DNA of 64,000 nt from a virus, in the IMG/VR virus record IMGVR_UViG_3300027969_000001, positions 32,001 through 96,000 of that record; one strand, 5' to 3'. The position numbers and the translations under genes were made by a program. The notes beneath the pieces were generated by a model. It was not told the origin of the DNA and did not search any database. It saw only the letters and a program-made list of their open reading frames with translations. This document shows, piece by piece, positions 13,374-32,299 of the stretch; within the stretch, counting starts at the first letter, position 1, and each line of letters begins with the position of its first letter.

Positions 13374-13662
13374 CTCTATTCTCCTTGTTGTTGGTGAGTG
13401 GTGAACACACCATACCAGCGTAGGTACAGACCTACAAACCTGACTTATCTATTCAGTAGAGACTTATCTATTCAGTATCAGAAGCGCACCACTTATCTAT
13501 TCACTCTCCACTTGTGGGCAAGCGAGCGAGCGAGTGCGCCAGCGCAAACTTTTTTATCTCTACCCCCATGCTCGCCACACGCCCTTCTGCGTTGGAGCCC
13601 CGATGTTGCCGAGCAGTGCCGGGGCTCCTATGGGAAAGGGGACTTATCTATTACAGATAGTT

Positions 13663-14145
13663 TTATTTTTCTCGTTTGGGAACCATAAGAACTTCCCATA
13701 GTCCATTTTTGATTTTGCGAAATAATGGAGATTCTTTGAGGTAGGTCAAAGTTGTCTGGTAAGAGAATCCTGATTGTTCTGTGAGTTGGTCAGATGTAAA
13801 TTGCTCTGCCTGATGTTCGCTTGACCACTGCTCAAATGCTGACCACTTATCTTTGCGCTTCTCTGTGCGTTCTACTTCTACCTGTGCGTCAGATAGTCCG
13901 ATGAATGTTGATAGAAGGTACTTTGATACTTCTGCCTGCACCGAGTATGTACTTAGGTACGATTGTGGTACACGCTGTCCACCTTCTCGTTGCCAAATCT
14001 GCAATACATAAAGTCCTCTGTTTATTTCAGAAACATAAGAAACTTCCGAGAACGGAACTGCTGTTGCGTTTTTGTATTTTTTGAGAAGCACTGCCCAATG
14101 TTCTTTGTGTACTTCTTTGATTAGGTCATCTGTAATAGTTTGCAT
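13663..14145 (-). CDS. Hypothetical protein with C-terminal wHTH-like domain
   Basis: FTSDQLTEQSGFSYQTTLTYLK...FRKIKNGLWEV. Confidence 0.6.
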   Translation of the reverse strand: MQTITDDLIKEVHKEHWAVLLKKYKNATAVPFSEVSYVSEINRGLYVLQIWQREGGQRVPQSYLSTYSVQAEVSKYLLSTFIGLSDAQVEVERTEKRKDKWSAFEQWSSEHQAEQFTSDQLTEQSGFSYQTTLTYLKESPLFRKIKNGLWEVLMVPKREK

Positions 14146-14225
14146 TTTTTCCTTTTTTTTGCAGTTTCTACCGTTTAGTTTTTTTCTAAAAAATCGTTTT
14201 TTTGATAGATAAGTAAGTTGGGCTG

Positions 14226-14435
14226 TTAGTCAATAACAACCCAACTGTCCTCTCCCTTGATTAGTCCGAGACTAGACCCACTATCCCACTGCACAAACAT
14301 TGTTCCTAGTGAATCAAAGTCGGTAATGACCCCTTCATCTCCTTTGGATAGTTTGGTGTGAATGTCAGATGTGTAAATCAGCCTGATTCTCCTGCCAATA
14401 AGTGCTTCTAGTCCTGCTGACAACTTATCTATCAT
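14226..14435 (-). CDS. DUF4314-like SH3-fold protein
   Basis: G.RIRL...GDEG....D..GT..VQWD.GSSLGLI.GED. Confidence 0.8.
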   Translation of the reverse strand: MIDKLSAGLEALIGRRIRLIYTSDIHTKLSKGDEGVITDFDSLGTMFVQWDSGSSLGLIKGEDSWVVID

Positions 14436-14586
14436 GCTGGCTCTTTCTCTTGTAACGCGATGATTCGCATGTCTAATAGAAAATCTGTCATTTCTAATGA
14501 CGAAACAATGTCTCTGCCTGAACAGTGGGAGATTGCTTTGTCAATCAACAAGACGATTGGTGACTTATCTATTACAGATTCTTCAC

Positions 14587-14826
14587 TCATTCTGCGTACC
14601 CGTAAATAACCATGTCAAGTTCGTTGCCTTCTTCATCGGTGTACTTCTTCTTTCCCTCTCCTGCACAGTCGTCAAAGTATTCATCGGCTTCCAACATAAT
14701 CATTTCCATGATGTCATCAAAGTCGGGCTTCTCATCGTTGTCCTCTCTGAATCGCTTTGCCGTTTCTGCCACATCAAATGTGACAGTATTGGTGCGAGTT
14801 ACTGTGATTGTTTTTGGCTCAGACAC
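14587..14826 (-). CDS. Hypothetical acidic protein
   Basis: ORF track; GTG start overlaps Box A. Confidence 0.55.
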   Translation of the reverse strand: MSEPKTITVTRTNTVTFDVAETAKRFREDNDEKPDFDDIMEMIMLEADEYFDDCAGEGKKKYTDEEGNELDMVIYGYAE

Positions 14827-14830
14827 TTAT

Positions 14831-15499
14831 CTATTCCTCATCTTTCTTTTTCTTAGCGTTACCAAGTAGGTCGTGGTAACGGTGAGCAACTACGGCGAGT
14901 TTCATGTAGGCAGTGGTAGCACCCATAGCCTCAACCATGCGTCCGTACTCCTGACCTTCTTTTACTTCGCTTACATCTGCCATGTAATCTTCTTCCGAAT
15001 ACACAGGAACTCCAAAGTCATCGTAGCGATACATTTGAGTAGCACTACCAATCAACGAACCATCCCAGTCCATGCCAGTAACAACGATTGCTTCACGGAC
15101 TTCTGAAAAAGGATTCTCTGAAAAGTCTTTCTGCATTTCGCCACGCTCAAAGTCAATTTCTTCTGATGTGTCTGCACTACGGCAGAAACCCTCTACACAG
15201 AGAAAGAGGAAAGAGAACTCACGGATAGGCATAGCCTTGACTACATCTTCGTACGCCTCTAATACATCTTCACGGTGAATGAGTGGAATCATTGCAATCT
15301 TGTATGGAGAAGATAATTCGTTTTCTTCCTGATACTCAACTGCATCTTCGTCATCGCTCTTGTAAGCAACGAGCATGAGTGGGGGAGTGTCTGTCATCCC
15401 CTCGTCTTTGCACATTTGCTCTTTGGCGTACTTAGTACGGTCAAGAACATCCAGCATTATTTTTGACATTTCTTCTGAAATGGTTTCGTTGATAGCCAT
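14831..15499 (-). CDS. Hypothetical protein (start at MAINE)
   Basis: AAGGAG RBS; promoter at 15531. Confidence 0.7.
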   Translation of the reverse strand: MAINETISEEMSKIMLDVLDRTKYAKEQMCKDEGMTDTPPLMLVAYKSDDEDAVEYQEENELSSPYKIAMIPLIHREDVLEAYEDVVKAMPIREFSFLFLCVEGFCRSADTSEEIDFERGEMQKDFSENPFSEVREAIVVTGMDWDGSLIGSATQMYRYDDFGVPVYSEEDYMADVSEVKEGQEYGRMVEAMGATTAYMKLAVVAHRYHDLLGNAKKKKDEE

Positions 15500-15559
15500 T
15501 GGCTTTCTCCTTGTTGGTAGGTGTGCAGTCATCGTACCAGTACAGGTACAGAACTACAA

Positions 15560-15766
15560 CTATCCAAGCAACCCCTGAATGGGGAGACTTAGTGCGTCAC
15601 TTAGCGAGACAAGAGTGTCCACGCTCGGCGAATAATGTTGGTTCTCAATACGGTTCACCGTTTTTCGTTCCAGCCCTGCTCGCTTTGCTAGTTCCTCTTG
15701 TGACCAGCCTCTTTCTTTTCTTTCAGTTTTTAGCCGTGTGGCAATTACTTCTGTTGCGTTTCCCAT
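15560..15766 (-). CDS. XRE/Cro-C1 HTH regulator
   Basis: RGWSQEELAKRAGLERKTVNRIENQHYSPSVDTL. Confidence 0.9.
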   Translation of the reverse strand: MGNATEVIATRLKTERKERGWSQEELAKRAGLERKTVNRIENQHYSPSVDTLVSLSDALSLPIQGLLG

Positions 15767-15800
15767 GTTGTTTCCTCTCTTGGGGACTTATCTATTTAGT

Positions 15801-16457
15801 TCAGAATGACGGAATGAAACTCTGAAACACCTTTCTCCTTTTATTTCCCCTTCTCCATGCCACATACTCCCTGATAGTGGCATCCAAATCTATGTCATGC
15901 TGGTCAGTGATGAGATTGCGCCATTCACTTTGTGCTTCGTAGAACTCGTCATACAACTCGTCAAGCCCTGATTCTGACGCTTTTTCGTACATCTGTATCA
16001 GTTCAGGTGGTTGCGTCATGTCACACATGTCCTCTGCAATCTTTTCGCCGTCACAGTAAAGTTCCCAACCAGCGTAGAAATCTGCTTCTTCTGTGCAACT
16101 GTACCCAAATACCAATTTAGGGAACTGCTTGCTGATGTTCTCAATCAACTTGTCACATGGACTCCATGCGCTCGTGTAGCGCAGATGTAGTGGGTACGAA
16201 TCTTTATCGTCAATCTCTATGTCACAAGCACCCCACTTGCTTCCCCACACGCCAAGTGCGCCACCAAAGAAAGAATCAAGTTTGTCCACCCATTCACTCT
16301 CGTCAGGGATAGGTACTAGATGGTTCATGTCATAGTGAGCGTTTATCTTGCGCCCTAGTTCATCATAATCTTCGGGCATTGAGATTGCTTTGAGAAACTT
16401 ACGAGTTTCTGTTTTGTTCCCTGCAACAACAAGGTTTGAGAAGCACCAGTTTGGCAT
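15801..16457 (-). CDS. DUF1281/YubB ferredoxin-like protein
   Basis: MPNWC.., WGSKWG, Y/F-T-S/A-A-W-S-P. Confidence 0.75.
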   Translation of the reverse strand: MPNWCFSNLVVAGNKTETRKFLKAISMPEDYDELGRKINAHYDMNHLVPIPDESEWVDKLDSFFGGALGVWGSKWGACDIEIDDKDSYPLHLRYTSAWSPCDKLIENISKQFPKLVFGYSCTEEADFYAGWELYCDGEKIAEDMCDMTQPPELIQMYEKASESGLDELYDEFYEAQSEWRNLITDQHDIDLDATIREYVAWRRGNKRRKVFQSFIPSF

Positions 16458-16715
16458 GGTAGTCCTTTCGGGTTAGTGGTGGTATGCAATGAGCGTACCA
16501 GCACAGGTTCAGAACTACTCGGGGGGACTTATCTATTACTCATCCACCACCGTCATTGACTAACGAGCAAAAGTTTTCTATCTCATCCCCCAAGATTTTT
16601 GACTTTTCTATCTCTACCCCCCATGCGCCGATTTTTTCTCTTTTTCGCCGTGTTCCGAAGGAGCCCCGACCAGTTTGGTTCGCCCCGGGGCTCTTTTGGG
16701 AAAAGGACTTATCTA

Positions 16716-17038
16716 TTACATAGGGAGAGTTACGAGTTGTGCCGAGTGGATGTACCAGCCGTAAGCGTGACGGTGTGTCATGTAGTGCAGTAGTTCCTTG
16801 ACATCGGTAAGGTGCGTGAACACATCTTCCAACGGAACGCCGTGGCTATCAAAGAATCCACGCTCGGGCTTGGGTGAGAACGAGATGTACATGTTCTCGT
16901 ATCCCTCATAAGAGCCATAAGACCTCTGTGGCTTTATCTGGCACTGCGCTCCAATAAACTTTTTTTTTGTCATCATCAGAAAGAGAGTCTTTATCAAAGA
17001 CCAAATGTGGGCGAATGACTTATCTATTACCATTCTCA
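16716..17038 (-). CDS. Hypothetical protein (start at MRMVIDKS)
   Basis: ORF track; start uncertain. Confidence 0.45.
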
Positions 17039-17281
17039 TGCCCTTCGCCAAACGCTGAACTGTTCGGTCAGGTCGGTACCAATCAGGGCAATAGTCAATC
17101 GTGCAATGGATTCCAGCAGTTCTTTTTCGGTAATGCCCCATTCCTCGTTAGCCCACGGGAACATCATTCCGTTCTCGTAGTCACACCAAATGTTCGCCAT
17201 TGCGCCAGCACGACTAACGCCAATGCTGTAATAGTTTTCCCATAGGATTTCATCAACTGCGTATTTGCTAGTTTTCGTCAT
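17036..17281 (-). CDS. Hypothetical protein
   Basis: Overlapping operon arrangement; GAGG RBS. Confidence 0.5.
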   Translation of the reverse strand: MTKTSKYAVDEILWENYYSIGVSRAGAMANIWCDYENGMMFPWANEEWGITEKELLESIARLTIALIGTDLTEQFSVWRRA

Positions 17282-17483
17282 TTTGTACTTCCTCTGCTAC
17301 GTGCGATGAAATCGTGTCTGCAATTTTTGAGAAATCTACACCAAACGATGCTTTCCATCTGTCCAGTACAACTTCCATCGCAAGGTTCGCAACTTCTTCC
17401 GTAGAAAGATTTGCCGAGTCAATGCTCAGCACTTCCCTTACTGTTGCTGGTCCAACTATTGCTGTTACTTCGTAAAGAGCCAC
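17268..17483 (-). CDS. Hypothetical protein
   Basis: GTG start inside Box A. Confidence 0.55.
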   Translation of the reverse strand: MALYEVTAIVGPATVREVLSIDSANLSTEEVANLAMEVVLDRWKASFGVDFSKIADTISSHVAEEVQNDEN

Positions 17484-17487
17484 TTAT

Positions 17488-17715
17488 CTATTCCTCATCT
17501 TCATAGTCGCTGTCCACGGAGAACCAGCGCATCACTGTTAGAAGCAGGTTATCGTAATCGCCCGATGTTGCTTCGGCACGAAACGCCTCTATCTCATCGG
17601 CAGTCAATCCTGCTCGCCGAGCAATTCTCTGCACACGCCCAAGTATGGAGAAGGCGTTGCCGTCCTCTCCTACTAGTGGAATGTTGATGTGTGGGTATTT
17701 TGTATCTGTACTCAT
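17488..17715 (-). CDS. Conserved small phage/plasmid protein (GEDGNAF motif)
   Basis: LVGEDGNAFSILGRV...ATSGDYDNLL. Confidence 0.75.
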   Translation of the reverse strand: MSTDTKYPHINIPLVGEDGNAFSILGRVQRIARRAGLTADEIEAFRAEATSGDYDNLLLTVMRWFSVDSDYEDEE

Positions 17716-17927
17716 TCTGAGTGTTCTCCTGTTTCCATGTCAATAGCGTAAGCATCTTCCAACTTGGCTCCTGCCAAGCCTGCAACATTCCTGCCGAATG
17801 TTCTAGCCATTTTGCCTGCTTCTTTTAGGCTCTTGGCTTCTACGGTGGTATCTTCTGTCCACTCGGCAAGACCAATCTTTTCCTGCTTTGTCAGCAGAGC
17901 GATTATTTCGTATTCTTTTGTTGCCAT
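17712..17927 (-). CDS. Hypothetical protein (start at MATKE)
   Basis: AAAGGGG RBS; promoter at 17959. Confidence 0.6.
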   Translation of the reverse strand: MATKEYEIIALLTKQEKIGLAEWTEDTTVEAKSLKEAGKMARTFGRNVAGLAGAKLEDAYAIDMETGEHSE

Positions 17928-18002
17928 TACTTTCCCCTTTGTGGTTGGCTTCGCCTTCACTGTACCACAAGAGGTACGGAACTACAAGGGGGACTTATCT
18001 AT

Positions 18003-18350
18003 TCATGAACAGAGGTAGTCAAGCCACAGTACGAGAATGTCCAACGGCTCTGACATTGACGGAAATGCGTCCGAGGCTAGGAACTGGAAGTCCGAGAACA
18101 TCAACTCGTTCGTCTCCGTGTAACGGTTGCACCCACCTTCTCCCATGTTGTACACGGTCAGGAACTCCACACCATTGCGTGAGACAACTGCCTTCCAGTA
18201 AATCCCTCGGTCATGTTCGCTCTCCTCTTGTAGAGCAAACCTGTACCCCATCTTGTCAGGGCGCAGTTCGTCAGGAACGCTGTCAAAGATTTCTTCTATG
18301 TTTAGGTCAGTCATGTTTTTTAGTGTAGATAGATTTATCCGAAAAGTCAA
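18003..18350 (-). CDS. Hypothetical protein
   Basis: V.N.GEGGCNRY motif; real start possibly the internal MTDLN. Confidence 0.55.
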   Translation of the reverse strand: MTFRINLSTLKNMTDLNIEEIFDSVPDELRPDKMGYRFALQEESEHDRGIYWKAVVSRNGVEFLTVYNMGEGGCNRYTETNELMFSDFQFLASDAFPSMSEPLDILVLWLDYLCS

Positions 18351-18594
18351 TCAGCAGACTCATCCACCACCGTCAATTGCTAACGGCGACTTTTTTATCG
18401 CGACCCCCAGCTCGACCGACGAATTCGCAAAAAATCAACTTTTTTATCCCGACCCCCCAGATTTTTGCCCTGTTCCGAAAGAGCCCCGGACGGACCAGCG
18501 CAGGCGGGGCTCCAATGGAGAAGATGGGACTTATCTATTACATAGAGCAATCTCCCCTGCCGAGCGCAAGGGAGACTACTGAATAGATAAGTGG

Positions 18595-18912
18595 TCACTC
18601 GGTCAGGAGATAATGCCCACCACGCCTCTCGTATTGAGCAGTAGCCTCAGTAACGGTTTCACGGTAATCACCATTCTCCATGTGCCAACCTTCGGGACGG
18701 TCTACGGCGTTCCACACTGCGAACGGGTGAAGCGTGTTGTGTGGCAAGAGACAGAGAACAACCCACACGGCGTAAGCGTCAATGTCAGACGGGCGAGAGA
18801 GCCAGCAAGCGAGAATGGTGACAGGATTACTGCCACTGCTAGGAGTGAATGTGTCACCCACTTTCAGCAATCGCATTGGGTATGTCTCGGTAGGGGACTT
18901 ATCTATTGACAT
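18595..18912 (-). CDS. Hypothetical protein (start at MSIDKS)
   Basis: TAATG coupling with the upstream gene. Confidence 0.55.
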   Translation of the reverse strand: MSIDKSPTETYPMRLLKVGDTFTPSSGSNPVTILACWLSRPSDIDAYAVWVVLCLLPHNTLHPFAVWNAVDRPEGWHMENGDYRETVTEATAQYERRGGHYLLTE

Positions 18913-19355
18913 TACTCGCCACCCAACCAAGCGTTCATCTGCTCATCTGTCATCTCGGTAATGGTTGGTCTGAAATCCATTTCAGCGATTTCTTTGGTCA
19001 GCATTTCTTTGATGACTTCCATCTCTGCGATTTCTTTCGCAAAGTCAAAAAAGCGTCCTGATGTGTAGGTTGCTGGAATGTCGTGGTTCTCTCCGTCATA
19101 CTCGCCACGCTCGTTGAGAGAGCCGATTACAACGCAGTCACCCACAAGTGGACGCTGGAACAACATAGACGCTACGGCGTTCACTGGTAGCCCGATAAGC
19201 AATCCTTCGTCATGGACATAGCCCACGATTTCTTCGCCTCGTACACAGTCAAACCAGCCACCCACGATTTCGTGAATGAGTGTGTGACCGTTCTCGCTTG
19301 GTATGTCCTGCGTGAATACTTCACCTGTGGACTTGATGATTATTGCTGTTGCCAT
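18912..19355 (-). CDS. DUF3846-like protein
   Basis: IVGGWF..V, V.DEGL..GLP.N..AS, LVGD.V..G. Confidence 0.75.
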   Translation of the reverse strand: MATAIIIKSTGEVFTQDIPSENGHTLIHEIVGGWFDCVRGEEIVGYVHDEGLLIGLPVNAVASMLFQRPLVGDCVVIGSLNERGEYDGENHDIPATYTSGRFFDFAKEIAEMEVIKEMLTKEIAEMDFRPTITEMTDEQMNAWLGGE

Positions 19356-19470
19356 GATGGCTCTCCTTGTTTGGTAGGTGTTGATAGCGTACCACTGTGG
19401 GTACAGAACTACTGGTGGACTTATCTATTGAGTAGTGGGGACTTCTCCCCACTACTCGCAGATGAATTGG

Positions 19471-19875
19471 TTAGACGGCTTCTGCTTTGCTCGCAGGCTT
19501 GACTGAACCTTTGGCAGGCTTCACGAGAACTCGCACACTGTTCGTGATTTCCACGCAGGACTTGATGACCTTCTTGGTGATTTCGCCCTTGCCTACTGCG
19601 CTGTCCCACGCCTTAGTGTCAATCGCTGGCTTGGTGACCTTGCGAAACAATGCTGGCGAAAGTTGCTCACGCAATTTCTCAACAGAGAACGAACGGCGTT
19701 CTGCTGGCGAGACTTTGACATTCAGTTCTGCGAACTCGGCTTCGCTCACGCCTGCGATTGCGAATGTTGCGATAAGCAACTCTCTCGCTTCGTCATGCGC
19801 CTGCTCGGCTTGCTCTTTGGCTGTTAGAGCAGTGAGAAAAGCCTCTACTGCTTGGTTGATTGTTTCTGCTTCCAT
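19471..19875 (-). CDS. Hypothetical coiled-coil phage protein (possibly Gam-like)
   Basis: AAAGGGG RBS; promoter at 19919. Confidence 0.65.
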   Translation of the reverse strand: MEAETINQAVEAFLTALTAKEQAEQAHDEARELLIATFAIAGVSEAEFAELNVKVSPAERRSFSVEKLREQLSPALFRKVTKPAIDTKAWDSAVGKGEITKKVIKSCVEITNSVRVLVKPAKGSVKPASKAEAV

Positions 19876-20408
19876 GATGTACCCCTTTCGTGGGTGTGTA
19901 TCGCTTGTGGTACCCACAAGCGTACACGGTCAGGTACAGAACTACAACCTTTTGACTTATCTATTTACAACTCCCCTCAACCCCTCACGGTTAGCCTCTT
20001 ATTTATCACGACCCCCCATGCCTCGCCTCTCCTTTTCGCCCCTTCTCGGTTGGAGCCCCGTTCTAGTCGGGCATCATCGGGGCTCCCTTCGGCAAACCCC
20101 CCGATAGGCAAGTTCGCATGGGGAGTAGAGATAGAAAAGTGAACGATTTGGATAAGCGCAGACTGGCTCGGATTTATGCTCGGCTCACAGAAGTAGAACG
20201 GCTAGTGAGTGCCGTGCGTCTGCTCAACAGTCAGACACGGGCAAGGTTAGAGCGAAGCAAGTTCGTACTCGTGGAGAACGACTTATCTATTCAGGTAGAA
20301 AACCAAAAAAGGGAGACTCATCTGTAATAGATAAGTCTCCCTCTTTGTTGGTGTGGGCGTTTCCCTTCTGAAAGGAAGGGGGGACAGAGGTACTAAGCCC
20401 TCGCTCAA

Positions 20409-20828
20409 CTACTTTATGTAGCGAGCGACCCCTGCGTAGGTGTTGGTGCTTACTGTTTCCTCGTCTGTCATACGAAGGATACTGATAGCGTTCTCCAACT
20501 CCTCAATCTCTGATTTGATAGCCCAATGAACGAAGTCTTGTTCAGGCTCTTTTGGTGCTTTCACCGAAGCAGGAAACTCAATCGTGAGTTCGTACTTGTT
20601 GCCTTCCTCGTTACGGTAGTTGTTGTACTTGCTGACATTTGTGACCTTGCCCTTGCCTGAACGAAACAACTCCGAAAGACTGTCTTGGAAGTCTTTGACT
20701 TCTTTTTCGTATTCTTTTTTTGCTTTTTCGTAATCGGACATTTGCTTATTGCGAAAGTCAAGAGCCTTCTGTAATGCGTCAATCACTTTCTTAGTGCTGA
20801 CCTTTACATTTATGGATTTCTGTTTCAT
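20409..20828 (-). CDS. Hypothetical coiled-coil protein (start at MKQKS)
   Basis: AGGAG RBS; promoter at 20872. Confidence 0.7.
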   Translation of the reverse strand: MKQKSINVKVSTKKVIDALQKALDFRNKQMSDYEKAKKEYEKEVKDFQDSLSELFRSGKGKVTNVSKYNNYRNEEGNKYELTIEFPASVKAPKEPEQDFVHWAIKSEIEELENAISILRMTDEETVSTNTYAGVARYIK

Positions 20829-21147
20829 TTGGTTTCTCCTGCCAGCCTTGTAGGTGGGTGCTGACTCGCATACCGTACCACTCAAGGTACAGACCTACAC
20901 GCCCACTTATCTATTACATTTTTATCTCGCCCCCCCGTCCCTCGCCATGTGTTCGCAAGAAAGCCCCGACCTAGTTCGTTATCAACGGGGCTCATTCCGA
21001 AACGAGAGAACAAGAGCGCACTTGGGGGTTGAGATAGAAAAGTTGAGTTCGGGGTTGCGTAACTTATCTATTTGGAATAATCAAAAAACCGTAACGCTCG
21101 CACAACCGTAATAGATAAGTCAGGTCACCTTGGTAATAGATAAGTCA

Positions 21148-21183
21148 AAGCCCCTGTCAGCATGGGGTGGCTGACAGGGGCTA
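21148..21183 (-). terminator. GC-rich hairpin downstream of the 21198 gene
   Basis: AGCCCCTGTCAGC/GCTGACAGGGGCT. Confidence 0.55.
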
Positions 21184-21197
21184 AGGCTTGCTAAGTG

Positions 21198-21662
21198 TTA
21201 GCGCATGAAGTTGCGAATAGCGTCATTGAGACTGCCAGTTGCGCCACCTTCATCAGTAATCGTGTCATCAGGCTCGTCTTGGAAACGGAGAACGCTTACA
21301 ACATCTTCACGAGTAGCAACCACAACGAGACGAACACGACGCTTTTCAGGGTGCTGACTTGGTGGAGTGTCAAGACCAACTTCTGCGTCAAAGTCCTTGG
21401 GAAGTGGCGCAGCCCAACCCGTTGTAACTACTGCCGTGAACTCGTATGACTTAGCAACCTTACGGTCTGCCTTGTCCAGTAGGTCATAAACATCATCATG
21501 TGACGAGAGGTGAGTGAGTTTCGCTTCGTTGTTGGTGATAGTGACACCGTAGAGGCGAGATGAGGACAGTTGGAACTGGTCATCAGGATTAGTCGGGTGA
21601 CTGAGTAGGTGGTGGAGTTTGGCTTCTGCCAACTCTGCCGTAGCGAGTAATGAAAGTGTCAT
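21198..21662 (-). CDS. Hypothetical protein (start at MTLSL)
   Basis: GAAGGG RBS; promoter at 21697. Confidence 0.7.
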   Translation of the reverse strand: MTLSLLATAELAEAKLHHLLSHPTNPDDQFQLSSSRLYGVTITNNEAKLTHLSSHDDVYDLLDKADRKVAKSYEFTAVVTTGWAAPLPKDFDAEVGLDTPPSQHPEKRRVRLVVVATREDVVSVLRFQDEPDDTITDEGGATGSLNDAIRNFMR

Positions 21663-22101
21663 AGCGTTTCCCTTCGTGGTTTGTTGTGACAAGGACAGCG
21701 TACACGATTAGGTACAGAACTACAATGGCACTTATCTATTCAGAAAAAAGACTTCCACCACCGTCATTCACTAACAGGACAACCCACAACCCTTCTCGCT
21801 ATTTTTTGACTTTTTTATCACGACCCCCAAGCCCCTCGTTCGCCCTCGCCTTGGCGTGTTCGGAAAGAGCCCCGGGCATTTCGCCAACGGCGGGGCTCCA
21901 ATGGGAAAGGAAGCCGAGCCGAGTGAATTGGTTGGGTTGGGTGACTTATCTATTGCTGATACCGAGACAGCCGAGAGATAGAGCGAGCGTGTCACTCTCT
22001 GCCCTCGTGCCTATCCTCAATAGACAAGTGCCACGCCACAACGCCTGCCATGAGAGCAACACCGAGCAACGGTGAACAGAGGGCGAGTATCACGAGCGTT
22101 C

Positions 22102-22825: not shown

Positions 22826-22826
22826 G

Positions 22827-23850: not shown

Positions 23851-23851
23851 G

Positions 23852-24340: not shown

Positions 24341-24681
24341 GTCTTACCCCTTCTAAGTAGTTTGACTACTCGTACAATACCAGCAAAGGTACGGAACTAC
24401 TAGGGGACTTATCTATTCAGTATCGGCTCGCAGTATCCACTCGGATACGCTCGCAGTTGGCTCGCATACTTCGCTCGGACTTATCTATTCAGTAATCACC
24501 CACGCCTCGCACCTACCAGCACCAGCACTCTTTTTTATCTCTACCCCCGTTGCGCCCCCACCCGTCACTTCTCGGTGGGGGCCCCGTTCGCGCTGAGTCA
24601 TGCCGGGGCTCCCATCGGGCGCAAGGTCAAGCCTTGACCTACCCGTGAGAGTAAGTCAAGGCGAGACTATCTAGCACTTAT

Positions 24682-25116
24682 CTATTCAGGAAAGGCGCTA
24701 GCCCTTGCGAGTAATCCCGTAAGTATGCCGTCAGCGTAGTAGTCAGGCGCTGTGCCGTCTAGGTACTTGCCCAATGAGGCTAGGACTGTGCGCTCAAACT
24801 CGGCGAAGGACTTATCGCCGTAGCGCCCCACCGCTTGCGTGGCAAACTTGGTAGCAGGGTAGGTAGCGAAGTCAAAGACGGTAAATGATGTCACGCTCAT
24901 GGTGGCGTGTGGTTGCCAGTGAACTAGACGGATAGTTGCCTCATACTGCTTGCGCTTAGCGTCATGGCTGAACTCAAGTTCTATTTGCTCACCCCACAAG
25001 TCATTGCTGTGGACATGCGGAATGTCTACCTTTGAGGACTGCCAACGGTAGGTGACCTCACGGTCACGCTCACGGCGCTTGGCTTGCGCTAGTAGGTTGG
25101 TGGTTGCTGTGGTCAT
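24682..25116 (-). CDS. Hypothetical protein
   Basis: GAAGGGG RBS; promoter at 25149. Confidence 0.7.
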   Translation of the reverse strand: MTTATTNLLAQAKRRERDREVTYRWQSSKVDIPHVHSNDLWGEQIELEFSHDAKRKQYEATIRLVHWQPHATMSVTSFTVFDFATYPATKFATQAVGRYGDKSFAEFERTVLASLGKYLDGTAPDYYADGILTGLLARASAFPE

Positions 25117-25487
25117 GGTTACCCCTTCATGGTTGTTTGACTACTCGCATAGTACCATCGTAGGTACGGAACTACTGTGGGACTTATCTATTACCGATAC
25201 GCTCACGCCTCGCCACTCGGCAACCCCCGATAGTTGGGCTTATCTATCTCAACCCCCGTCACAGCCTCGGAGTCTCTCGGACTCTTACGGTTGGAGCCCC
25301 GTTCGCGCTCGGTTCCCTCGGGGCTCCCATCGGGAAGGGCGCTTCCCTACTCTTGGGGGTCGTGATAAAAAAGTTTCATCTAATCGGTCAGGGTCTTTCT
25401 TTCATAGATAAGTCTCGGTGGAGGTTTGTACCTCACCATGTACTCTGTGTCCAGTTGGGGGATGGTCTCCCAGCAGGAAGGGATGCC

Positions 25488-26009
25488 ATGTTCGGTGTTG
25501 TTCAGCAGTTGGAGGACGAAGAGGTGCAGGCTCGCACTGTGCTTTTCGTTTACGAAGTCAAAGAGGAAGGCGATGCACTCGCTGTGGTTGGAACATTCCA
25601 CCCCAACTTCTTTGACCAAGACATTGTCAATCTCATCAAGGAAGAGCGCCAGTGCTCTTACAACCAAGCAGAGGACGACGAGCAGGGTTCAGCGATGGAA
25701 GCCTGTGGTTGCATTTGGTGCCTCACCGAAGGCACGGGCTATCTCAATTGGGGAAGCAACGGATGGGATGACATTCCGAGAGGGTTCGCATTTGTGCAGT
25801 TTCCAAAAAGCGCTGCAATCGCCGAAGGCTCGCTCATTCTTGTTGAAGGCAAGTGGCTCTCCGAGGACATCCACGGCGTTTCGGAAACCAAGTCCGTTAT
25901 CAACTACGAGACCACAATGGTGGAGACCTCGCATGGCACCTACCCCGAAGCCGAGTGCCTTGCAGTTGAGCATTGGGAGTTGCTACCAGCACTCCCAGCC
26001 AATCGGTAA
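25488..26009 (+). CDS. Hypothetical protein (start at MFGVV)
   Basis: Promoter at 25420-25446; AGGAAGG RBS. Confidence 0.65.
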   Translation: MFGVVQQLEDEEVQARTVLFVYEVKEEGDALAVVGTFHPNFFDQDIVNLIKEERQCSYNQAEDDEQGSAMEACGCIWCLTEGTGYLNWGSNGWDDIPRGFAFVQFPKSAAIAEGSLILVEGKWLSEDIHGVSETKSVINYETTMVETSHGTYPEAECLAVEHWELLPALPANR

Positions 26010-26267
26010 TAGATAAGTCATCAACCACTCTGAGTGAAAGAAGAACTCGCTCAGAGTGATGACCAAGGAAGCCCCGGCTCGCTCGTTCCCAACGGGGCTC
26101 CCTTGCGCTTCGCTTGCTTCGGTGGTGGGGGTCGTGATAAAAAAGTCTGCTCCTCGTTGCGAGGGAGAAGCTCGGGTTATCTGTAATAGATAAGTACCCC
26201 TAGCAGTTCTGTACCTATTGGGTTACTATTGAGTGACCACATAACACTTTCCTGAAGGGGGAACTAA

Positions 26268-26681
26268 ATGTCAAAAATAGATTATGACGGAATACAACTT
26301 TCGTACGAGGCTCAAGTTATTGAGTCAGATAAAAAGTTGCTTGATGCTTTACTTGATGCCGTGAAAGATGAAGAACTTGCACCTTTCACATTCCACATGG
26401 AGTGGGTCATCTGTGATTACTGCCGTGGCAACGGTGGACACTCTCGCCGTTTCGGTGCAATGAGTTCAGAAGAGTTTGCAGAGTGGAGCGATGAGTCTCG
26501 TGAAGCGTACTTGCGTGGTGCTTACGATGACCGTTGTGAAGCGTGTGATGGAAGTGGAAAGGTCTATGAGATGAACGAAGGCGCATTGCCTGAAGAAGTT
26601 ATTGAGTTCATTGACAACTACCGTCAGTACGCATTTGATAGCGCATCTGAAAGTCGTGCTGAACGAATGGCAGGTTGCTGA
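26268..26681 (+). CDS. Protein with two CxxCxGxG Zn-finger repeats
   Basis: CDYCRGNG...CEACDGSG; promoter at 26203. Confidence 0.7.
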   Translation: MSKIDYDGIQLSYEAQVIESDKKLLDALLDAVKDEELAPFTFHMEWVICDYCRGNGGHSRRFGAMSSEEFAEWSDESREAYLRGAYDDRCEACDGSGKVYEMNEGALPEEVIEFIDNYRQYAFDSASESRAERMAGC

Positions 26682-26920
26682 TGTTTACTTACCGTGTAAC
26701 TGTTCAGGTCACGCTTGATGTTGAGGCAGAAGATGACGATGGAGCAATGGCAGTAGCAATGCAGAATGTCAGTGCTCGCATAGGCGATGACCGTACAACA
26801 CCTCTCCACGAAAGAACTGATGCAATGTGGGTGACAGGCATTGCTGAAAGAGATTACGAATACTTTTGTTACAAGCAACCATTCCCACTATGGGTAATAG
26901 ATAAGTCAGAGGACTACTAA
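26681..26920 (+). CDS. Hypothetical protein
   Basis: TGATG coupling. Confidence 0.55.
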   Translation: MFTYRVTVQVTLDVEAEDDDGAMAVAMQNVSARIGDDRTTPLHERTDAMWVTGIAERDYEYFCYKQPFPLWVIDKSEDY

Positions 26921-26922
26921 TC

Positions 26923-27213
26923 ATGAATAACAAAAGCGATAGTTATTACACACTTAGGTCTGTCATTCGTTTTATCTTTTGGGGAACGATACTCGCAGTA
27001 ATCATGTGGATTGTTACAACATCTATTGCAGTTTTTGCATCTGATGAAACACCCGATTGTGATGTGACATTAGAGCGTGACTTCACATGGAACGCTCGTG
27101 AGTTCGCAGTGCTCAATCCAACCAAGACGCTTGCAGATTGCCGTCATTACCAAAGCGTTGTTCTCAATGAGAACGGCACATGGGAATGGTACGACCCATA
27201 CATGGACTCATAG
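26923..27213 (+). CDS. Membrane-anchored hypothetical protein
   Basis: One TM segment; GAGG RBS. Confidence 0.6.
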   Translation: MNNKSDSYYTLRSVIRFIFWGTILAVIMWIVTTSIAVFASDETPDCDVTLERDFTWNAREFAVLNPTKTLADCRHYQSVVLNENGTWEWYDPYMDS

Positions 27214-27314
27214 AAAGGATTGATTATGGTTTTTTTATTTGTTATTGCAGTAACGCTTGCAGTTCTAATAGCAATAGTTCGTGACGATAGATGGTGGTGA
27301 ACACTTATCTATTA

Positions 27315-27626
27315 CTAATCAAACGAACGAGACACTGGTAAGTCGCATTGCAAACAATCGTAATGTGCAAGTGTCTTTTTTGTTTTTCTCTTGACGATGT
27401 ACGCAGATGAAAGATGACCACCACCTTCGTACTCACTCAACAATGCTTGATGCGTTTTTATCTCTTCGCTGTTGAGACCTAAGTCCTCGGCGCAGTACGC
27501 ACAGATGTAGCCATCGGCAATCTCGTCATAGATGACAGATGTAGTCATGTCATCTTGCTCGTACTCATCAGAGAACTGGTTGGTGCTAGTTGCAAAGTAC
27601 GGTTGGAGTGCTTTTGTTTTTTTCAT
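27315..27626 (-). CDS. Hypothetical Zn-binding protein
   Basis: Two CxxC motifs; GAGG RBS. Confidence 0.55.
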   Translation of the reverse strand: MKKTKALQPYFATSTNQFSDEYEQDDMTTSVIYDEIADGYICAYCAEDLGLNSEEIKTHQALLSEYEGGGHLSSAYIVKRKTKKTLAHYDCLQCDLPVSRSFD

Positions 27627-28219
27627 TTTTTCCTCTCACCTCTTATGAGGTTGCTTGTGTTTTACAATCGGACATTTTTTCTTACATCTTTTACAAGAGT
27701 CCTTGCATCTCTTTATGTCAAAAGTTTTTGTCCGTTACCTATTAGACGTGTCATCGTCTCCGTTTCTGAAAACGATGCTCGCAGTTGATAGAAGCGTCAT
27801 CTTGATACGAAAACGAAACGACTTATCTATTCAGTAATAGAAAGCAGGCTTCGCTCGGAGAAAGTAAGCGAGTCAGCAACTTTTCTATCTCTACCCCCGT
27901 TGCAAGGCAGTTATGCCAGCGCATGGGAGCCCCGATGCTGTTCGCTCCTAACGGGGCTTCTACCTCGCGCGCGTGACGCCGAGAGCAGCAAGCTTGGGGG
28001 GTCGCGATAAATAAGCAAGATTTCAGCTGGGAGCTGGGAGCTGGGAGCTGGCGAAATAAGGGATAGATAAGTGGTTTAAATCTTTTACAAAACTGACCGA
28101 TTGCAAAACGCAACTCCTTGCAAATAAAGGGTTTGCGGTCGTAAAAATGTAGGTTTGTACCTACTTTTGTATAATCCGCGCACGCCCACAACCACCACAA
28201 CAACCCACAAGGAGCCCAC

Positions 28220-28321
28220 ATGAAGCCACACGATAAGAACAGCCGCCCACCTACCTCATTCGTAGGCGGCGCAGGTCATTGGAATAAGCGCGGCAAATCA
28301 AAGCCAAAAGATAAAAAGTAA
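28220..28321 (+). CDS. 33-aa basic microprotein (not in the ORF track)
   Basis: AAGGAG RBS directly after the promoter with a TATAAT -10; MKPHDKNSRPPTSFVGGAGHWNKRGKSKPKDKK. Confidence 0.5.
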   Translation: MKPHDKNSRPPTSFVGGAGHWNKRGKSKPKDKK

Positions 28322-28348
28322 TTCGGACAAAGGAAGGAACCACACCCG

Positions 28349-28957
28349 ATGAACACACACCCACACCACGCAGCAGTAGTAGACGCAATCAAGGCGCTAC
28401 CTGCTTACACAGACCCGCAGACATTCTTTGAGTCAGAACTAGCCGAGTGCTACTCAGACGAGGAGCTTGTAGAAACATTCGGCTGGGACGGAGACAAGGC
28501 GCTCACAATCAAGCAGGCGCTCAAAGCAGTCAAGGAGCTTTGCGAGCTTCGTCAAGATGTTTACGGCTGGATTATTGAGGAAGGCGACCGAGAGCGCGAA
28601 GCAGAGCAAGAGGCGTACAAGCGCTGGCGCGAAGAACAAGAGGCAGCTAGCCGTTGTGGTTGGCTCGTAGAGCGCTCATGGGAAGCAGCTTTCCCATTCG
28701 TGCCGAACCCCGAATACACAGATGAGGAGAACGCCGAACACAGGCAGTGGCACGGTGAAAGCCTCGGTGAACGAGCAGCAGAGTCAGGCAACCGCTACGC
28801 AATCGTTGATTGTGGTGCGAAGCTCGCAGATGTCATTCGCAACGGCGTGCGAGTTGGTTGGGAGTGCGAAGCAGGTCACCGTTCCATCAGCATGGAACAC
28901 ATGACGCAAGAGGAGCAGGACGAGCAATACCGCTTGGATTACGAGGACAGCTACTAG
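28349..28957 (+). CDS. Hypothetical acidic protein
   Basis: AAGGAAGG RBS. Confidence 0.7.
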   Translation: MNTHPHHAAVVDAIKALPAYTDPQTFFESELAECYSDEELVETFGWDGDKALTIKQALKAVKELCELRQDVYGWIIEEGDREREAEQEAYKRWREEQEAASRCGWLVERSWEAAFPFVPNPEYTDEENAEHRQWHGESLGERAAESGNRYAIVDCGAKLADVIRNGVRVGWECEAGHRSISMEHMTQEEQDEQYRLDYEDSY

Positions 28958-29123
28958 CCACCTCTTGGAATAGATAAGTTCTCCCCACGCCCCCACCCCC
29001 CCTTCCATCAGGGGCGTGGGGTTTATCGCAGGGACAAGCCCCGTTCGGGTTCGTTTCCGTCGGGGCTCTCATCGTTAGCGCGAAATGTCCGTAGGTCTGT
29101 ACCTCCCCGGGTACTCTGTGGCC

Positions 29124-29453
29124 ATGACAAAAAAACACTTCACCGATTACACCAAAGCCGAAGCATGGGCCGAGAAAAACAACCTCGCCCTAGAACCCAT
29201 CGGAACCTGCTGGGAGGAGCACACAGTGGCCTCATGGAAGAGCGATACCACCCGTATCGAAATATGGATTCAGGAGATGGAATACGCAGCAGAGCACGAG
29301 CGTGGCGGATACATCCCTTGCCTTGTGGATTGCCCTGTAGTCCTCGTGTGGGACGGCCTAGAGGCCAATGCGCCCTACACGCTCCACCCTGACTTCTGCA
29401 CGCTCACAGAGGCTCGCAAGGGCTTCGATGAGTTGGTCAGGCAAGCGAGTTAG
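29124..29453 (+). CDS. Hypothetical protein, probably leaderless (start at MTKKH)
   Basis: ATG lies 6 nt after the -10 box TACTCT. Confidence 0.6.
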   Translation: MTKKHFTDYTKAEAWAEKNNLALEPIGTCWEEHTVASWKSDTTRIEIWIQEMEYAAEHERGGYIPCLVDCPVVLVWDGLEANAPYTLHPDFCTLTEARKGFDELVRQAS

Positions 29454-29737
29454 ACACCCGGTGAACTTTTTCTCCCCGGCACGAAATTCCCTGCCGGGGA
29501 GAAATTCCGGCGGGTTTTTTCTTCACCGGAATTTCTTGCCGGAATCGGAAAGATTTTGCGCTAATGGTAGAAGCCCCGTTCTCGTTCGTTCTCTATTGTT
29601 TCGAACGGGGCTCTCATCGGCTCGGGTGTTCGGCGCGAACAACACGCGATGGGGGTTGTGATAGATAAGTGTAGGTCTGTACCTGACCAGGTACGATGCT
29701 TGTACGGCGGGAAGTACCCGCCCATGAAGGGAAAGTC

Positions 29738-30019
29738 ATGAAGCAAGTAACAATCACATGGAAAGCGTTCGGCGAACCAACATCGGCTGCACTCGCGCTT
29801 GACACGAGCGCAAGCGCGTTGGAGATATGCGATGCAATATTCCACCAAACGAATGTTTACGCTGGTCCGATATGGGACGAACTGGAACCGCTCCTGCCAG
29901 CCACACGCACACACACTGCGCTTTCAGTTGGAGACGAAGTCACAGTTGATGGCGAAGTGATTCGGTGCGAGCCAATGGGTTGGGCTACCAGGTTCATCGC
30001 TGACGCTCTTACTGAATAG
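29738..30019 (+). CDS. YodL-like small protein
   Basis: HTALSVGDEV.V......C...GW. Confidence 0.6.
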   Translation: MKQVTITWKAFGEPTSAALALDTSASALEICDAIFHQTNVYAGPIWDELEPLLPATRTHTALSVGDEVTVDGEVIRCEPMGWATRFIADALTE

Positions 30020-30231
30020 ATAAGTCCCCCCAGCGGAGAACCCCACCTCACTCGGGTGGGGTTCTTCCCGTTCTCAAGACAGCCCCGTGGCTGTTCGGCA
30101 CGAACGGGGCTCTCATCGGCGAGCGAGCGAGAATGATTGGGGGTCGCGATAGAAAAGTTTCCAAAAGAAAAGGTTGCAATCCTGTACCTGCTGTGGTACG
30201 ATTTCATCAGACCAGTAGAAGGGGTTGACCA

Positions 30232-30531
30232 ATGAGGAAAGAGACACGCTCTCTCAAAAAGAAAGCCGAAGGCCTAGGCATTTCGGTAGATGAATTAGTT
30301 GAGGAAATGGAAGTCGGGAATCCCGACAAATCGTTCGTCATAACTGTGGCCTTTGACCGATACAAAGATTTGCGTTCGTTCGCAGACGAAATCGCTCAGA
30401 GAATGGGTCTCGCAATTTATCAGGCCGATTCACTTGACCACGAATACAACGGCAGTGTGCGAGACGGAATGTTCGTCCTGCGAGACCCGAACGGTTTCCA
30501 CGGCAAACCAGACCATTGGAGGGTTGACTAG
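30232..30531 (+). CDS. Hypothetical protein
   Basis: GAAGGGG RBS; promoter at 30176. Confidence 0.6.
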   Translation: MRKETRSLKKKAEGLGISVDELVEEMEVGNPDKSFVITVAFDRYKDLRSFADEIAQRMGLAIYQADSLDHEYNGSVRDGMFVLRDPNGFHGKPDHWRVD

Positions 30532-30605
30532 TGGTGATAGATAAGTCCCCTTGTAGTTCTGTACCTTATGTAGTACGCTCTGTTCAGACCACGGAAGGGG
30601 TTTCC

Positions 30606-30908
30606 ATGATAACAACGGAAAAATTCGAGATGCTCAAAGAGCAACTGGAAGCATCAACAGACCAGATGAAGAAAATGGTAGAGGCGCTAAGAACGCCAAC
30701 ACCATGCGATTGCTGCTTCTCAGACGAGGAGAACGCTGAGAATTATCGCGATTTTGAGAACGCAGTTCGCGACCTCTCTAACGAATGTCAAGAGATTGCG
30801 ATGAAGGCCTACGATTGCTACATGGCCATCACCCGCGCTCCACTGGAAATTGCGCTCGCACAACTGGATGCGATGCAAGAGGGCTACCGCCTCCTCGCCG
30901 AACAATAG
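30606..30908 (+). CDS. Hypothetical helical protein (start at MITTE)
   Basis: GAAGGGG RBS; promoter at 30553. Confidence 0.6.
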   Translation: MITTEKFEMLKEQLEASTDQMKKMVEALRTPTPCDCCFSDEENAENYRDFENAVRDLSNECQEIAMKAYDCYMAITRAPLEIALAQLDAMQEGYRLLAEQ

Positions 30909-31149
30909 GTAATAGATAAGTCCCCCGAGCACCCCCCGCTCGGGGGATTTTCTTTGCCCGTGACCCAGCCCGTACTTGTAATAGATAAGTCCCCTGTTGT
31001 GATGAAGCCCCGTCTTCGGCGGAGTCCGTTCGTCTCCGACGGGGCTCTCATCGGCGAGCGAGCGAGAGTGCATTGGGGGTCGTGATAAAAAAGTGTAGGT
31101 CTGTACCTAGTGCAGTACAGTGTGGTCATACCAACGGAAGGGGTACGAG

Positions 31150-31656
31150 ATGCCAAAGACGGCTCTACAAGTAAAGACCACAGGTGAAGTAGTAATGCTT
31201 GACCTAGAGGGTGACGAACTAGCAACACTGCAGAGTGCAGTGGGCGGATACATTGAAGCAATAAACTTCACCAACTCGCTGACTATGTGGTGCAACGAAG
31301 AAGGCAAACTAGACGGTCTCTCGCAGAACATCATTGCTCAACACTTCTATGACAATGCATACGGTGCAGGGCGTGACATTATCGTGGGTGATGTTGTATT
31401 CACTGGCGGTGCTGATGATGAAGGTGACACAATGGGTCTCCGTGAAGAATTGGTCAAAGACATTCACGAAGTAGCCGAGCGTCTTGCTCGCTCCGCAGTG
31501 TTCATCACCAAGGCAGAGACGAAGAAGGTCATGAGCTGGCAAGACCATCTCGGTGACGCTCCTATGACAGAGGAGAATGTGTGGCAGGCAATTGCTGATG
31601 CGAATGACCTTGACTACGACGAAATTGCTGACGGCGATTTATTTGAGTGGCTCTAG
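31150..31656 (+). CDS. DUF3846-like protein (paralog of 18912..19355)
   Basis: LQSAVGGYIE, CNEEGKL, IVGDVVFTG. Confidence 0.8.
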   Translation: MPKTALQVKTTGEVVMLDLEGDELATLQSAVGGYIEAINFTNSLTMWCNEEGKLDGLSQNIIAQHFYDNAYGAGRDIIVGDVVFTGGADDEGDTMGLREELVKDIHEVAERLARSAVFITKAETKKVMSWQDHLGDAPMTEENVWQAIADANDLDYDEIADGDLFEWL

Positions 31657-31743
31657 CGCTCAATTATTGGTAATAGATAAGTGCCAATTGTAGGTCTGAA
31701 CCTACGGTGGTACTGTGTGGTCACCTAAGGAAAGGGGTACGCA

Positions 31744-32085
31744 ATGTCATCAGACATTACATTCATCAACAGAGTGCAGGAAGCACTCACGGCAGGCAAG
31801 GTTATCGGGGACGGGCACACTCTGTTCGCTCCCGAGTTCTACGAGCCGTACTTCACGGCAGAGGAACTCTCTAGCCTTATTCGTAAGCACGAATCTCACG
31901 GCTCGTGGAAATCCACCATCTTTGACGAGGACGGCAATGTCATTCCTGAATTAGAGGCTATCTACAATCTAGATTTTCTCTACTGGCTCGCAGGGCAACT
32001 CGGAGTGACGGAGCGCACCACAGCGAACGGCAGAGGCTCGCAGGCTCAGCAACTCGTAGGGTACATCAGAGAAATACTGGTCTAA
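31744..32085 (+). CDS. Hypothetical protein
   Basis: AAAGGGG RBS; promoter at 31690. Confidence 0.65.
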   Translation: MSSDITFINRVQEALTAGKVIGDGHTLFAPEFYEPYFTAEELSSLIRKHESHGSWKSTIFDEDGNVIPELEAIYNLDFLYWLAGQLGVTERTTANGRGSQAQQLVGYIREILV

Positions 32086-32299
32086 CCAACAGAGCCACAA
32101 CGGCTCCCTACTGAATAGATAAGTCCCCCGAGTGTCATTGCTCGGGGGACTTGTCGTGTCCATGCACATTCGAGTCTTGTATCTGTAATAGATAAGTACC
32201 CCGCGCCAAGGAAGCCCCGGGTGACTCCGTTTCACACGGGGCTCTCTTGTGAGATTGTTTAAAGATGTGTAGGATTGCTTAACTATTCAGGAGGACATC

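Follow-up and report, generated by a model that had tools for sequence, protein, structure and literature searches.

The 64,000-nt window analyzed here comprises bases 32001–96000 of IMG/VR record IMGVR_UViG_3300027969_000001; this virus record (genome G000) is complete, 158,714 bp long, and has terminal repeats. It holds an array of small accessory genes punctuated by copies of one inverted repeat, AGCCCCG-N-CGGGGCT, termed the dyad in this work. The setting of the array was based on a crude gene call and a motif map of the window, and promoters and terminators throughout are sequence predictions. The array genes encode DUF3846, DUF6011, DUF4314, DUF1281_C, and AAA_5 ATPase proteins, and genes for DUF932 and an SNF2 helicase flank them. 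Exact dyads number 15 between window positions 13596 and 32243, compared to 0 in 100 dinucleotide shuffles, and every copy is intergenic. A sixteenth copy at 24580–24610 carries a one-base change (GGCCCCG-N17-CGGGGCT) and has its own arm, an arm being a G-run followed by an A-like box at some distance from the dyad core. The spacer between the two half-sites is 17 nt in ten exact copies and the variant, 16 nt in three copies (18482, 21868, and 26070), and 27 nt in two (29572 and 31006). A preliminary description of this DNA had listed 16 palindromes with spacers of 17 nt in 11 copies, 16 nt in 3, and 27 nt in 2. Its count holds as 15 exact copies plus the variant at 24580, and its spacer lengths were confirmed.

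Units on the left side of the array read on the minus strand. The first dyad (13596–13626, 17-nt spacer) has a single arm on its left at 13548–13567 (minus strand), 28 bp from the core. The dyads at 16662–16692 (17-nt spacer), 18482–18511 (16-nt spacer), and 21868–21897 (16-nt spacer) also have minus-strand arms, located at 16602–16621, 18438–18457, and 21809–21828, respectively, with gaps of 39–40, 23–24, and 39 bp. For 18482, a second arm copy lies at 18389–18408. The arm of the variant core is on the minus strand at 24527–24548, 31 bp off, these coordinates being approximate. Further right, arms are on the plus strand. The dyad at 26070–26099 (16-nt spacer) follows a hairpin 10 nt upstream and has its arm 27 bp away at 26127–26146. 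The dyad at 30081–30111 (17-nt spacer) follows a terminator hairpin 15 nt upstream, with its arm at 30139–30158, 27 bp from the core, and a -35/-10 pair 15 nt further. The two copies with 27-nt spacers, 29572–29612 and 31006–31046, have arms at 29651–29670 (38 bp) and 31075–31094 (28 bp), which abut promoter boxes at 29671 and 31095, respectively; the spacer of the latter dyad contains a 5-bp palindrome. Two copies with 17-nt spacers are armless. One (29037–29067) has a terminator hairpin 15 nt upstream and a promoter box 23 nt downstream, and the other (32213–32243) has an A box 15 nt upstream.

Five copies, all with 17-nt spacers, are double-armed, with a left arm on the minus strand and a right arm on the plus strand. 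At 20054–20084, the left arm (19998–20018, TCGTGATAA type) faces an A box at 19955 and a promoter at 19933, and the right arm (20120–20140, TAGAGATAG type) has no clear downstream gene. At 20962–20992, the left arm (20916–20935) abuts an A box at 20905 and a promoter at 20886, and the right arm (21024–21043) is of the TTGAGATAG type. The dyad at 23297–23327 has a left arm of the TCGTGATAA type (23238–23257) facing a promoter at 23175 and a right arm of the TAGAGATAG type (23359–23378). At 25295–25325, gene and motif polarity flip: the left arm (25238–25257) faces a promoter at 25163 and leftward genes, and the right arm (25355–25374) faces a promoter at 25420 and rightward genes. The arms of 27928–27958 are of the TAGAGATAG type on the left (27879–27898) and the TCGCGATAA type on the right (27997–28016). 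Each double-armed copy combines one TCG(Y)GATAA-type and one T(A/T)GAGATAG-type arm, in agreement with the two arm types of the preliminary description. Double-armed dyads separate divergent units, and 25295 is the reversal point of the entire array.

Along the genes, the order of a unit is stop codon, A box, often a terminator-type hairpin, dyad, 23–40 bp, arm, sometimes a second A box, promoter, and next gene. The arms end in GATARAWAAGT, in agreement with the earlier reading of this end as a degenerate A box, and are related to the A box AATAGATAAGT, which has ~65 copies. In the form (T)GNAATAGATAAGT, about 65 A-box sites span 3714–40274 (e.g., 14825–14835 and 17482–17492) and are always co-oriented with genes. 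They sit in short intergenic gaps or overlap stop or start codons, and lie 5–8 nt upstream of about 20 promoters. The predicted promoter consists of a TTGTAG-like -35 element, 17 nt including a conserved TCTGTACC stretch, and a TGG-TACNNT extended -10 element; promoters after dyads read TTKGTA, 17–18 nt, TANNNT. At about 20 sites between 13423 and 31705 (e.g., 17973–17985 and 29091–29103), the promoter box GTAGKTCTGTACCT precedes TGG-TACNNT in a sigmaA-type arrangement. Within the -35/spacer region of this promoter, a palindrome is conserved (GTAGGT..ACCTAC, also TGTACC-N5-GGTACA), which is probably an operator, and a similar TCTGTNCC stretch is retained in the promoter spacer of relatives. 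Downstream of several arms and before genes, a clade-wide motif, (A/T)TGACGGTGG(T/C)GGA, opens a short reading frame beginning MTVV. It was found at 16540–16570, 18345–18385, and 21745–21775, as well as at loci of the related lineages G007, G008, L203, and L212.

A terminator-type hairpin ends 6–15 nt ahead of the dyad in most copies of G007 and in several copies of G000. Starting this close behind a terminator, the dyad sits in a gap that is expected to be untranscribed. This position, always between transcription units, would suit a boundary or insulator, in which a dyad-bound protein acts as a roadblock backing the upstream terminator and keeps read-through from the next unit. A symmetric site confers no polarity, however, and the distances described below add a second difficulty; we regard this function as unlikely.

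The dyad is restricted in the genome. No further copy occurs anywhere else in the 158,714 bp, and all 36 single 7-mers (AGCCCCG or CGGGGCT) are confined to genome positions 38.7–73 kb, with 0 in the remaining ~124 kb where composition predicts about 9. Five solitary 7-mers, at 6771, 8796, 10347, 10383, and 41018, all lie within the early region. The preliminary description considered the spacer sequences unrelated. We found instead a weak consensus common to the 17-nt spacers,.TC..GTTCG.T.CC..; their pairwise matches average 6.8, compared to 4.55 in shuffles. Across the eleven 17-nt spacers (13596–30111) this consensus reads on the plus strand, in leftward and rightward units alike. It is thus decoupled from arm and gene polarity, and lineages G003 and G004 carry a related consensus in inverted orientation with respect to the arms. 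Possible causes of the fixed strand are gene conversion between dyads and a polarity at the level of the genome. A look-alike at 21149–21182 (AGCCCCT...AGGGGCT) follows the gene that ends at 21198; its stem is 13 bp long and its loop 8 nt, and it was set aside as a terminator-type hairpin outside the dyad family.

Relatives were gathered from IMG/VR by one pattern scan and two protein-anchored scans. They form a large clade whose core proteins are 50–85% identical between members, and a megablast of the array against INPHARED phages gave zero matches. Phages of this clade have genomes of ~150–170 kb and are numerous in lakes; their hosts are uncultured actinobacteria, probably of the group acIV/Ilumatobacteraceae. 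The actinobacterial assignment follows from the TANNNT promoters, a WhiB gene, CGAAC-N4-GTTCG LexA boxes in relatives, and homologues of an array protein in metagenome-assembled genomes (MAGs) of Ilumatobacteraceae (acIV).

In ~1.84 Mb of related IMG/VR phage DNA, 207 exact nonredundant dyads were counted, with copies in all lineages. Spacers fall into clade-wide classes of 15–20 and 24–29 nt, and their length is lineage-typical: 16–18 nt in most lineages, 19–20 nt in G006, 25–26 nt in the L203 group, with a mixture in G007. When orthologous copies from two relatives are compared, the half-sites are identical, the spacers are 82% identical, and the 40-nt flanks are 78% and 85% identical; the idea that spacers evolve faster than flanks was dropped after this measurement. 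The A box and the A-like half of the arm vary jointly between lineages, each lineage having its own A-box version, and the arm retains only its 5' CGGGG(G). In G007, G008, L203, L212, and L218, arms are missing and the dyad is directly upstream of the promoter.

This invariance bears on the possibility that the dyads are ordinary bidirectional intrinsic terminators. The GC-rich stem with A before it and T after it resembles one, and many unrelated phage contigs carry the same stem base in classical T-tract terminators. However, real terminators vary in sequence, whereas the 7-mer is invariant in 207 copies. In addition, the "loop" of 15–29 nt is not self-complementary, no T-tract follows (the bases behind CGGGGCT being mostly of the CYC or CCA type), and separate canonical terminators lie just upstream. 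An identity as terminators is very improbable.

The next issue is whether the dyad functions as duplex DNA or as a folded strand. An RNA or single-stranded DNA hairpin, such as a 3'-end stabilizer, a processing site, an attC-like substrate, or an Frpo-like promoter, would have several features in its favor. Double-armed copies fold in silico into imperfect hairpins of 128–143 nt that are better than those of shuffles (z -2.5 to -5.4), which confirms the ~140-nt hairpin of the preliminary description. These hairpins follow from the inverted repeats and are no evidence of function. Long spacers often contain internal palindromes, small hairpins whose loops resemble stable tetraloops follow the dyad in some lineages, and the array genes (for DUF932, DUF3846, DUF1281_C, and, elsewhere, an ArdC-like protein) recall plasmid leading regions. 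The substitution pattern is different from that of a helix. Among altered copies, 30 were changed in one half of the inverted repeat only (16 at the outermost base), 6 had different changes in both halves, and 7 had matching changes, a number within the range of chance GC-rich hairpins. Single-sided changes thus exceed compensated ones, and the stem never covaries in the manner of a helix, the half-sites being invariant.

The flanks led to the same result. Beside either half-site the sequence follows the consensus of its lineage, on each side independently. Within-copy complementarity between left and right was not above that of permuted partners (311 compared to 307 ± 11, p = 0.39, 88 copies), inward extension gave 83 of 352 pairs, which equals chance, and G-U and A-C counts in the flanks showed no strand bias. 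Two-sided consensus flanks without added complementarity indicate that the symmetry reflects two equal protein contacts and not a longer stem. The putative loop is also long, length-constrained, and sequence-neutral, and the dyad is downstream of terminators. Rfam at the gathering threshold returned two tRNAs only, and at E ≤ 5 over 13.3–32.4 kb it returned only sub-threshold chance hits. A tRNA-like minihelix (7-bp stem plus 17-nt "T-arm") was rejected because the spacers form no T-arm. With neither covariation nor an Rfam family, and with the phasing described next, for which RNA offers no explanation, the folded alternative that the preliminary description had raised (attC- or Frpo-like) is disfavored, and we consider it quite unlikely.

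Distances from the dyad to the promoter are quantized by the helical repeat. In the armless lineage G007, dyad-to-promoter-box distances were 1, 10, 10, 11 (five copies), 21, 22, 31, 32, and 65 bp. The best period was 10.5 bp (R = 0.92), a fit that just 1 of 20,000 random sets equaled over periods of 5–20 (Monte Carlo p = 5e-5). Measured to the -35 element, the distances in armless relatives are 2, 11–12, 22–23, 32–33, and 66 bp. LexA boxes inserted in two of the longer distance classes leave the phase intact. The same step of about one turn was observed in L203 (10 and 20 bp), L218 (15, 25, and 25 bp), and L212 (23–25, 31, and 36 bp). Five lineages with different promoter boxes combined gave p < 2e-4 with an optimum of 10.5–11 bp. 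In G000, it is the gap between dyad and arm that clusters, at 27–31 and 35–39 bp. For G000 and four relatives together, 49 dyad-to-arm gaps were bimodal, at 28–31 and 37–41 bp, with none at 32–34 bp. The G-run of the promoter-abutting arms (dyads 29572 and 31006) would lie at about -53 to -49, and the G-run of the promoter-proximal half-site would occupy the same position in the main class of armless lineages.

The preliminary description had placed the helical relation inside the dyad, with longer spacers extended by one turn (+10 bp). This fits the two 27-nt copies of G000; it does not fit the clade-wide classes of 15–20 and 24–29 nt or the one lineage at 25–26 nt. Clean helical phasing is between dyad and promoter or arm, not between half-sites. 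The roadblock introduced above requires no rotational setting, yet the distances to the -35 element are quantized at about 10.5 bp. Phasing is likewise difficult to reconcile with the dyad itself being a promoter, bidirectional by virtue of its palindrome, with -35/-10-like half-sites about 17 bp apart read by an alternative sigma factor or a phage polymerase, since a promoter would have no need to be helically phased to the one after it. In most copies the 17 ± 1 spacing is reminiscent of promoter geometry, and operators (arms and LexA boxes) are located downstream of the dyad. However, some lineages routinely have spacers of 19–20 and 24–29 nt, and a "-10" of G and C alone is implausible. 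A search of the complete genome found no sigma region 2, and PHROG scans of the three giant proteins returned no polymerase family. We give this possibility hardly any weight.

Gene movement in the array was mapped in a single case. One cassette occupies different array positions in two close relatives (G002 13677–14385 and G004 18278–18974), and the surrounding array DNA is mostly 89–98% identical. One breakpoint of the moved cassette falls within a shared stretch of ~65 bp from dyad to arm; the other falls at an A box about 40–55 bp before the next dyad. The cassette-like array and the first breakpoint could suggest that the dyad is a recombination joint, at which a site-specific recombinase would make the crossover when it moves cassettes. 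However, no serine or tyrosine recombinase and no PF00589 match was found in the complete genome, and the second breakpoint is outside any dyad. Homologous exchange within the ~65 bp of shared sequence explains the relocation, and site-specific recombination leaves the promoter phasing unexplained; a recombination joint is extremely unlikely. The preliminary description had proposed a multisite protein–DNA assembly of a recombination or looping kind. The assembly part agrees with a double-stranded element, invariant half-sites, and helical distances, and the recombination part fails with the missing recombinase and with breakpoints that do not run from dyad to dyad.

Our preferred interpretation, to which we assign a probability of roughly 60%, is that a phage-encoded factor binds the dyad and regulates the early cassette promoters in a helix-face-dependent way. 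Protein binding, phage encoding of the binder, and a transcriptional output are what we infer from the anatomy, invariance, lack of covariation, phasing, and genomic position of the dyad. A sequence-specific protein, most likely phage-encoded and conserved in the clade, would bind the two 7-bp half-sites on duplex DNA. The dyad would then be a cis-regulatory site in the short gap between the terminator of the upstream gene and the next sigmaA-type promoter, and the bound protein would act on this promoter from one helix face, through either RNA polymerase or a promoter-proximal partner. In G000 and its closest lineages, the arm may provide the promoter-proximal contact, as a third CGGGG-type half-site fused to a lineage-specific A-like box. 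This box would probably be bound by a second, lineage-specific A-box protein of the stoperator-binding-repressor kind. Double-armed copies would serve two divergent units. The outcome would be a single regulon of about 15 early accessory-gene cassettes. The array promoters, as predicted, look reasonably strong by themselves, so the regulation could be either activation or shut-off.

The dyad is no host motif and its spacer length is lineage-specific, which suggests a co-evolving phage protein. In 81 genomes of the candidate host family, the dyad had 22 matches compared to 84 for a reversed control, and most of the 22 have palindromic spacers typical of ordinary hairpins. The idea of a host factor was rejected because the dyad was not enriched in 5 + 81 candidate-host-family genomes. 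Three candidate DNA-binding proteins were noted in G000: a 68-aa Cro/C1-type helix-turn-helix (HTH) protein inside the array (15560–15766, minus strand), a 124-aa protein with an HA domain and a sigma-region-4-like HTH at the array edge (9853–10227, plus strand), and a WhiB-like protein near the primase (63036–63350, minus strand). The most widespread array protein, with 154 aa (21198–21662, minus strand), is present in the array of nearly every lineage. Its AlphaFold model is beta-rich with a pLDDT (predicted local distance difference test) of 89, and MAGs of Ilumatobacteraceae (acIV) carry its homologues as ordinary genes of the chromosome.

Several observations weigh against a phage-encoded, helix-face-dependent regulator. 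When about 40 proteins of the array and its flanks were scanned with Pfam and PHROG, the families recovered were DUF3846, DUF6011, DUF4314, DUF1281_C, AAA_5, Cro-like HTH, HA plus sigma-4-like HTH, and WhiB, and none of them could be tied to the dyad. Clear HTH proteins in the neighborhood are limited to those of 68 and 124 aa, which were not recovered from every lineage. The 154-aa protein has no fold match in the PDB, which together with its chromosomal homologues makes it no obvious regulator, and the most widespread small array proteins gave no DNA-binding signature. Phasing in G008 is weak (R = 0.32), and in G000 the dyad-to-promoter distances (23–190 bp) show no periodicity by hand calculation, the dyad-to-arm gaps alone being periodic. 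The spacing of half-sites is variable (12–29 nt in G007), a range that a rigid dimer would not easily accommodate. Two features would also suit a folded single strand: the internal palindromes in several long spacers, and a small UUCG- or GAAA-loop hairpin after the dyad in several copies of the G001 and G004 lineages.

Further motifs adjoin the dyad in some relatives. LexA-type SOS boxes (CGAAC-N4-GTTCG) lie on its promoter side at 8724, 9451, and 13366 in L161 (G007), at 5514 in L203, and at 501 and 6404 in L233, which suggests that some early cassettes may respond to host DNA damage. Clusters of 3–4 DnaA boxes (TTATCCACA and near variants) are immediately adjacent to the dyad in several lineages, at about 12300–12380 in G008 (L159), about 20011 on the contig in G008 (L160), 4524 in L212, and 275 in L218. 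These clusters could mark a replication origin or a DnaA-controlled promoter.

The dyad appears undescribed in the literature searched. One 7-mer dyad has remained invariant in more than 200 copies, while the other control motifs of the lineages have all changed. It defines an early regulon from sequence alone, marks boundaries where cassettes appear to be exchanged, and predicts a conserved DNA-binding protein that should be recoverable with a 31-bp probe. The natural spacing variants (+10, +21, and +31 bp) suit face-of-helix tests in an actinobacterial system. A broader and rather doubtful proposal is that dyad and arm form both a common docking module of a clade-wide regulator and the homology for swapping accessory, anti-defense-type genes, integron-like and integrase-free. 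If so, each terminator–dyad–promoter–gene unit would be a self-contained, co-regulated expression cassette, and the absence of the 7-mer from all other parts of the genome would stem from a cost that stray docking sites impose.

Among known systems, attC sites differ from the dyad in that no IntI-type recombinase was found here, the exchange boundaries of the single mapped cassette are not both in the core, and sequence rather than structure is conserved. Frpo differs in that the paired parts of the dyad contain no -35/-10-like hexamers and single-armed copies form a 7-bp stem only. Frpo also acts on DNA that enters the cell single-stranded, and the DNA of a tailed phage with terminal repeats is expected to enter as a duplex. 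In T4-like phages, PeSLs (early promoter plus stem-loop) are homologous-exchange points (PMC2839356, PMC4122927). As with PeSLs, modules of terminator plus promoter recur around the small variable genes of a hyperplastic early region, and the predicted series of terminator hairpin, dyad, (arm), and -35/-10 is repeated between cassettes. In the one relocation mapped, the breakpoints of the G002/G004 cassette at the dyad/arm module and the A box would fit homologous exchange at shared regulatory motifs, as described for PeSLs. PeSLs have neither a separate invariant dyad with a constrained unpaired spacer nor reported phasing, and their hosts and phage families are unrelated to those considered here.

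The stoperators of Cluster A mycobacteriophages, bound by the L5/Bxb1-type repressor, are asymmetric 13-mers occupied by monomers that block elongation (PMC9283540, PMC6550527). The A box and the A-like part of the arm are similarly short, asymmetric, co-oriented with transcription, and placed in short intergenic gaps, often over stop or start codons. In contrast, the dyad is symmetric, upstream of promoters, and phased to them, and no L5-type repressor was identified in G000. Cluster K mycobacteriophages contain start-associated sequences (SAS) of 13 bp by the translation start, with extended SAS (ESAS) that are imperfect 17-bp inverted repeats with a 4–13 bp spacer (Pope et al. 2011, PMC3203893; PMC12699233). 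Both systems are actinophage-specific repeats in the nonstructural half of the genome with no function assigned. In both, an inverted pair with a variable spacer lies just upstream of a short asymmetric motif at a subset of genes, with a consensus specific to the sub-lineage. The dyad differs in consisting of perfect 7-mers 15–29 bp apart, upstream of the promoter and lineage-invariant, and there is no sequence similarity. SAS/ESAS is the nearest published actinophage parallel.

Outside actinophages, the KorB operator OB on IncP plasmids is a 13-bp palindrome without a gap, the binding site of a ParB-family clamp. The KorB OB/KorA system shares with the dyad an invariant palindrome that precedes many promoters of a mobile element by differing distances and works with another operator closer to the promoter. 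The sole free-standing ParB_N gene of G000 is in the late region. Class I sites of CRP are centered at about -61.5, -72.5, and -82.5, and phi29 p4, which controls the early/late switch, binds short inverted repeats with about 15 bp of free sequence between them. The half-sites of the dyad are GC-rich and have no sequence similarity to either. The geometry is comparable: dyad sites are centered about 53, 63, 74, and 84 bp upstream of the start, as in those systems, where sites are effective only at one-turn steps. In G007, and in the five lineages combined, the allowed positions likewise differ by integral helical turns.

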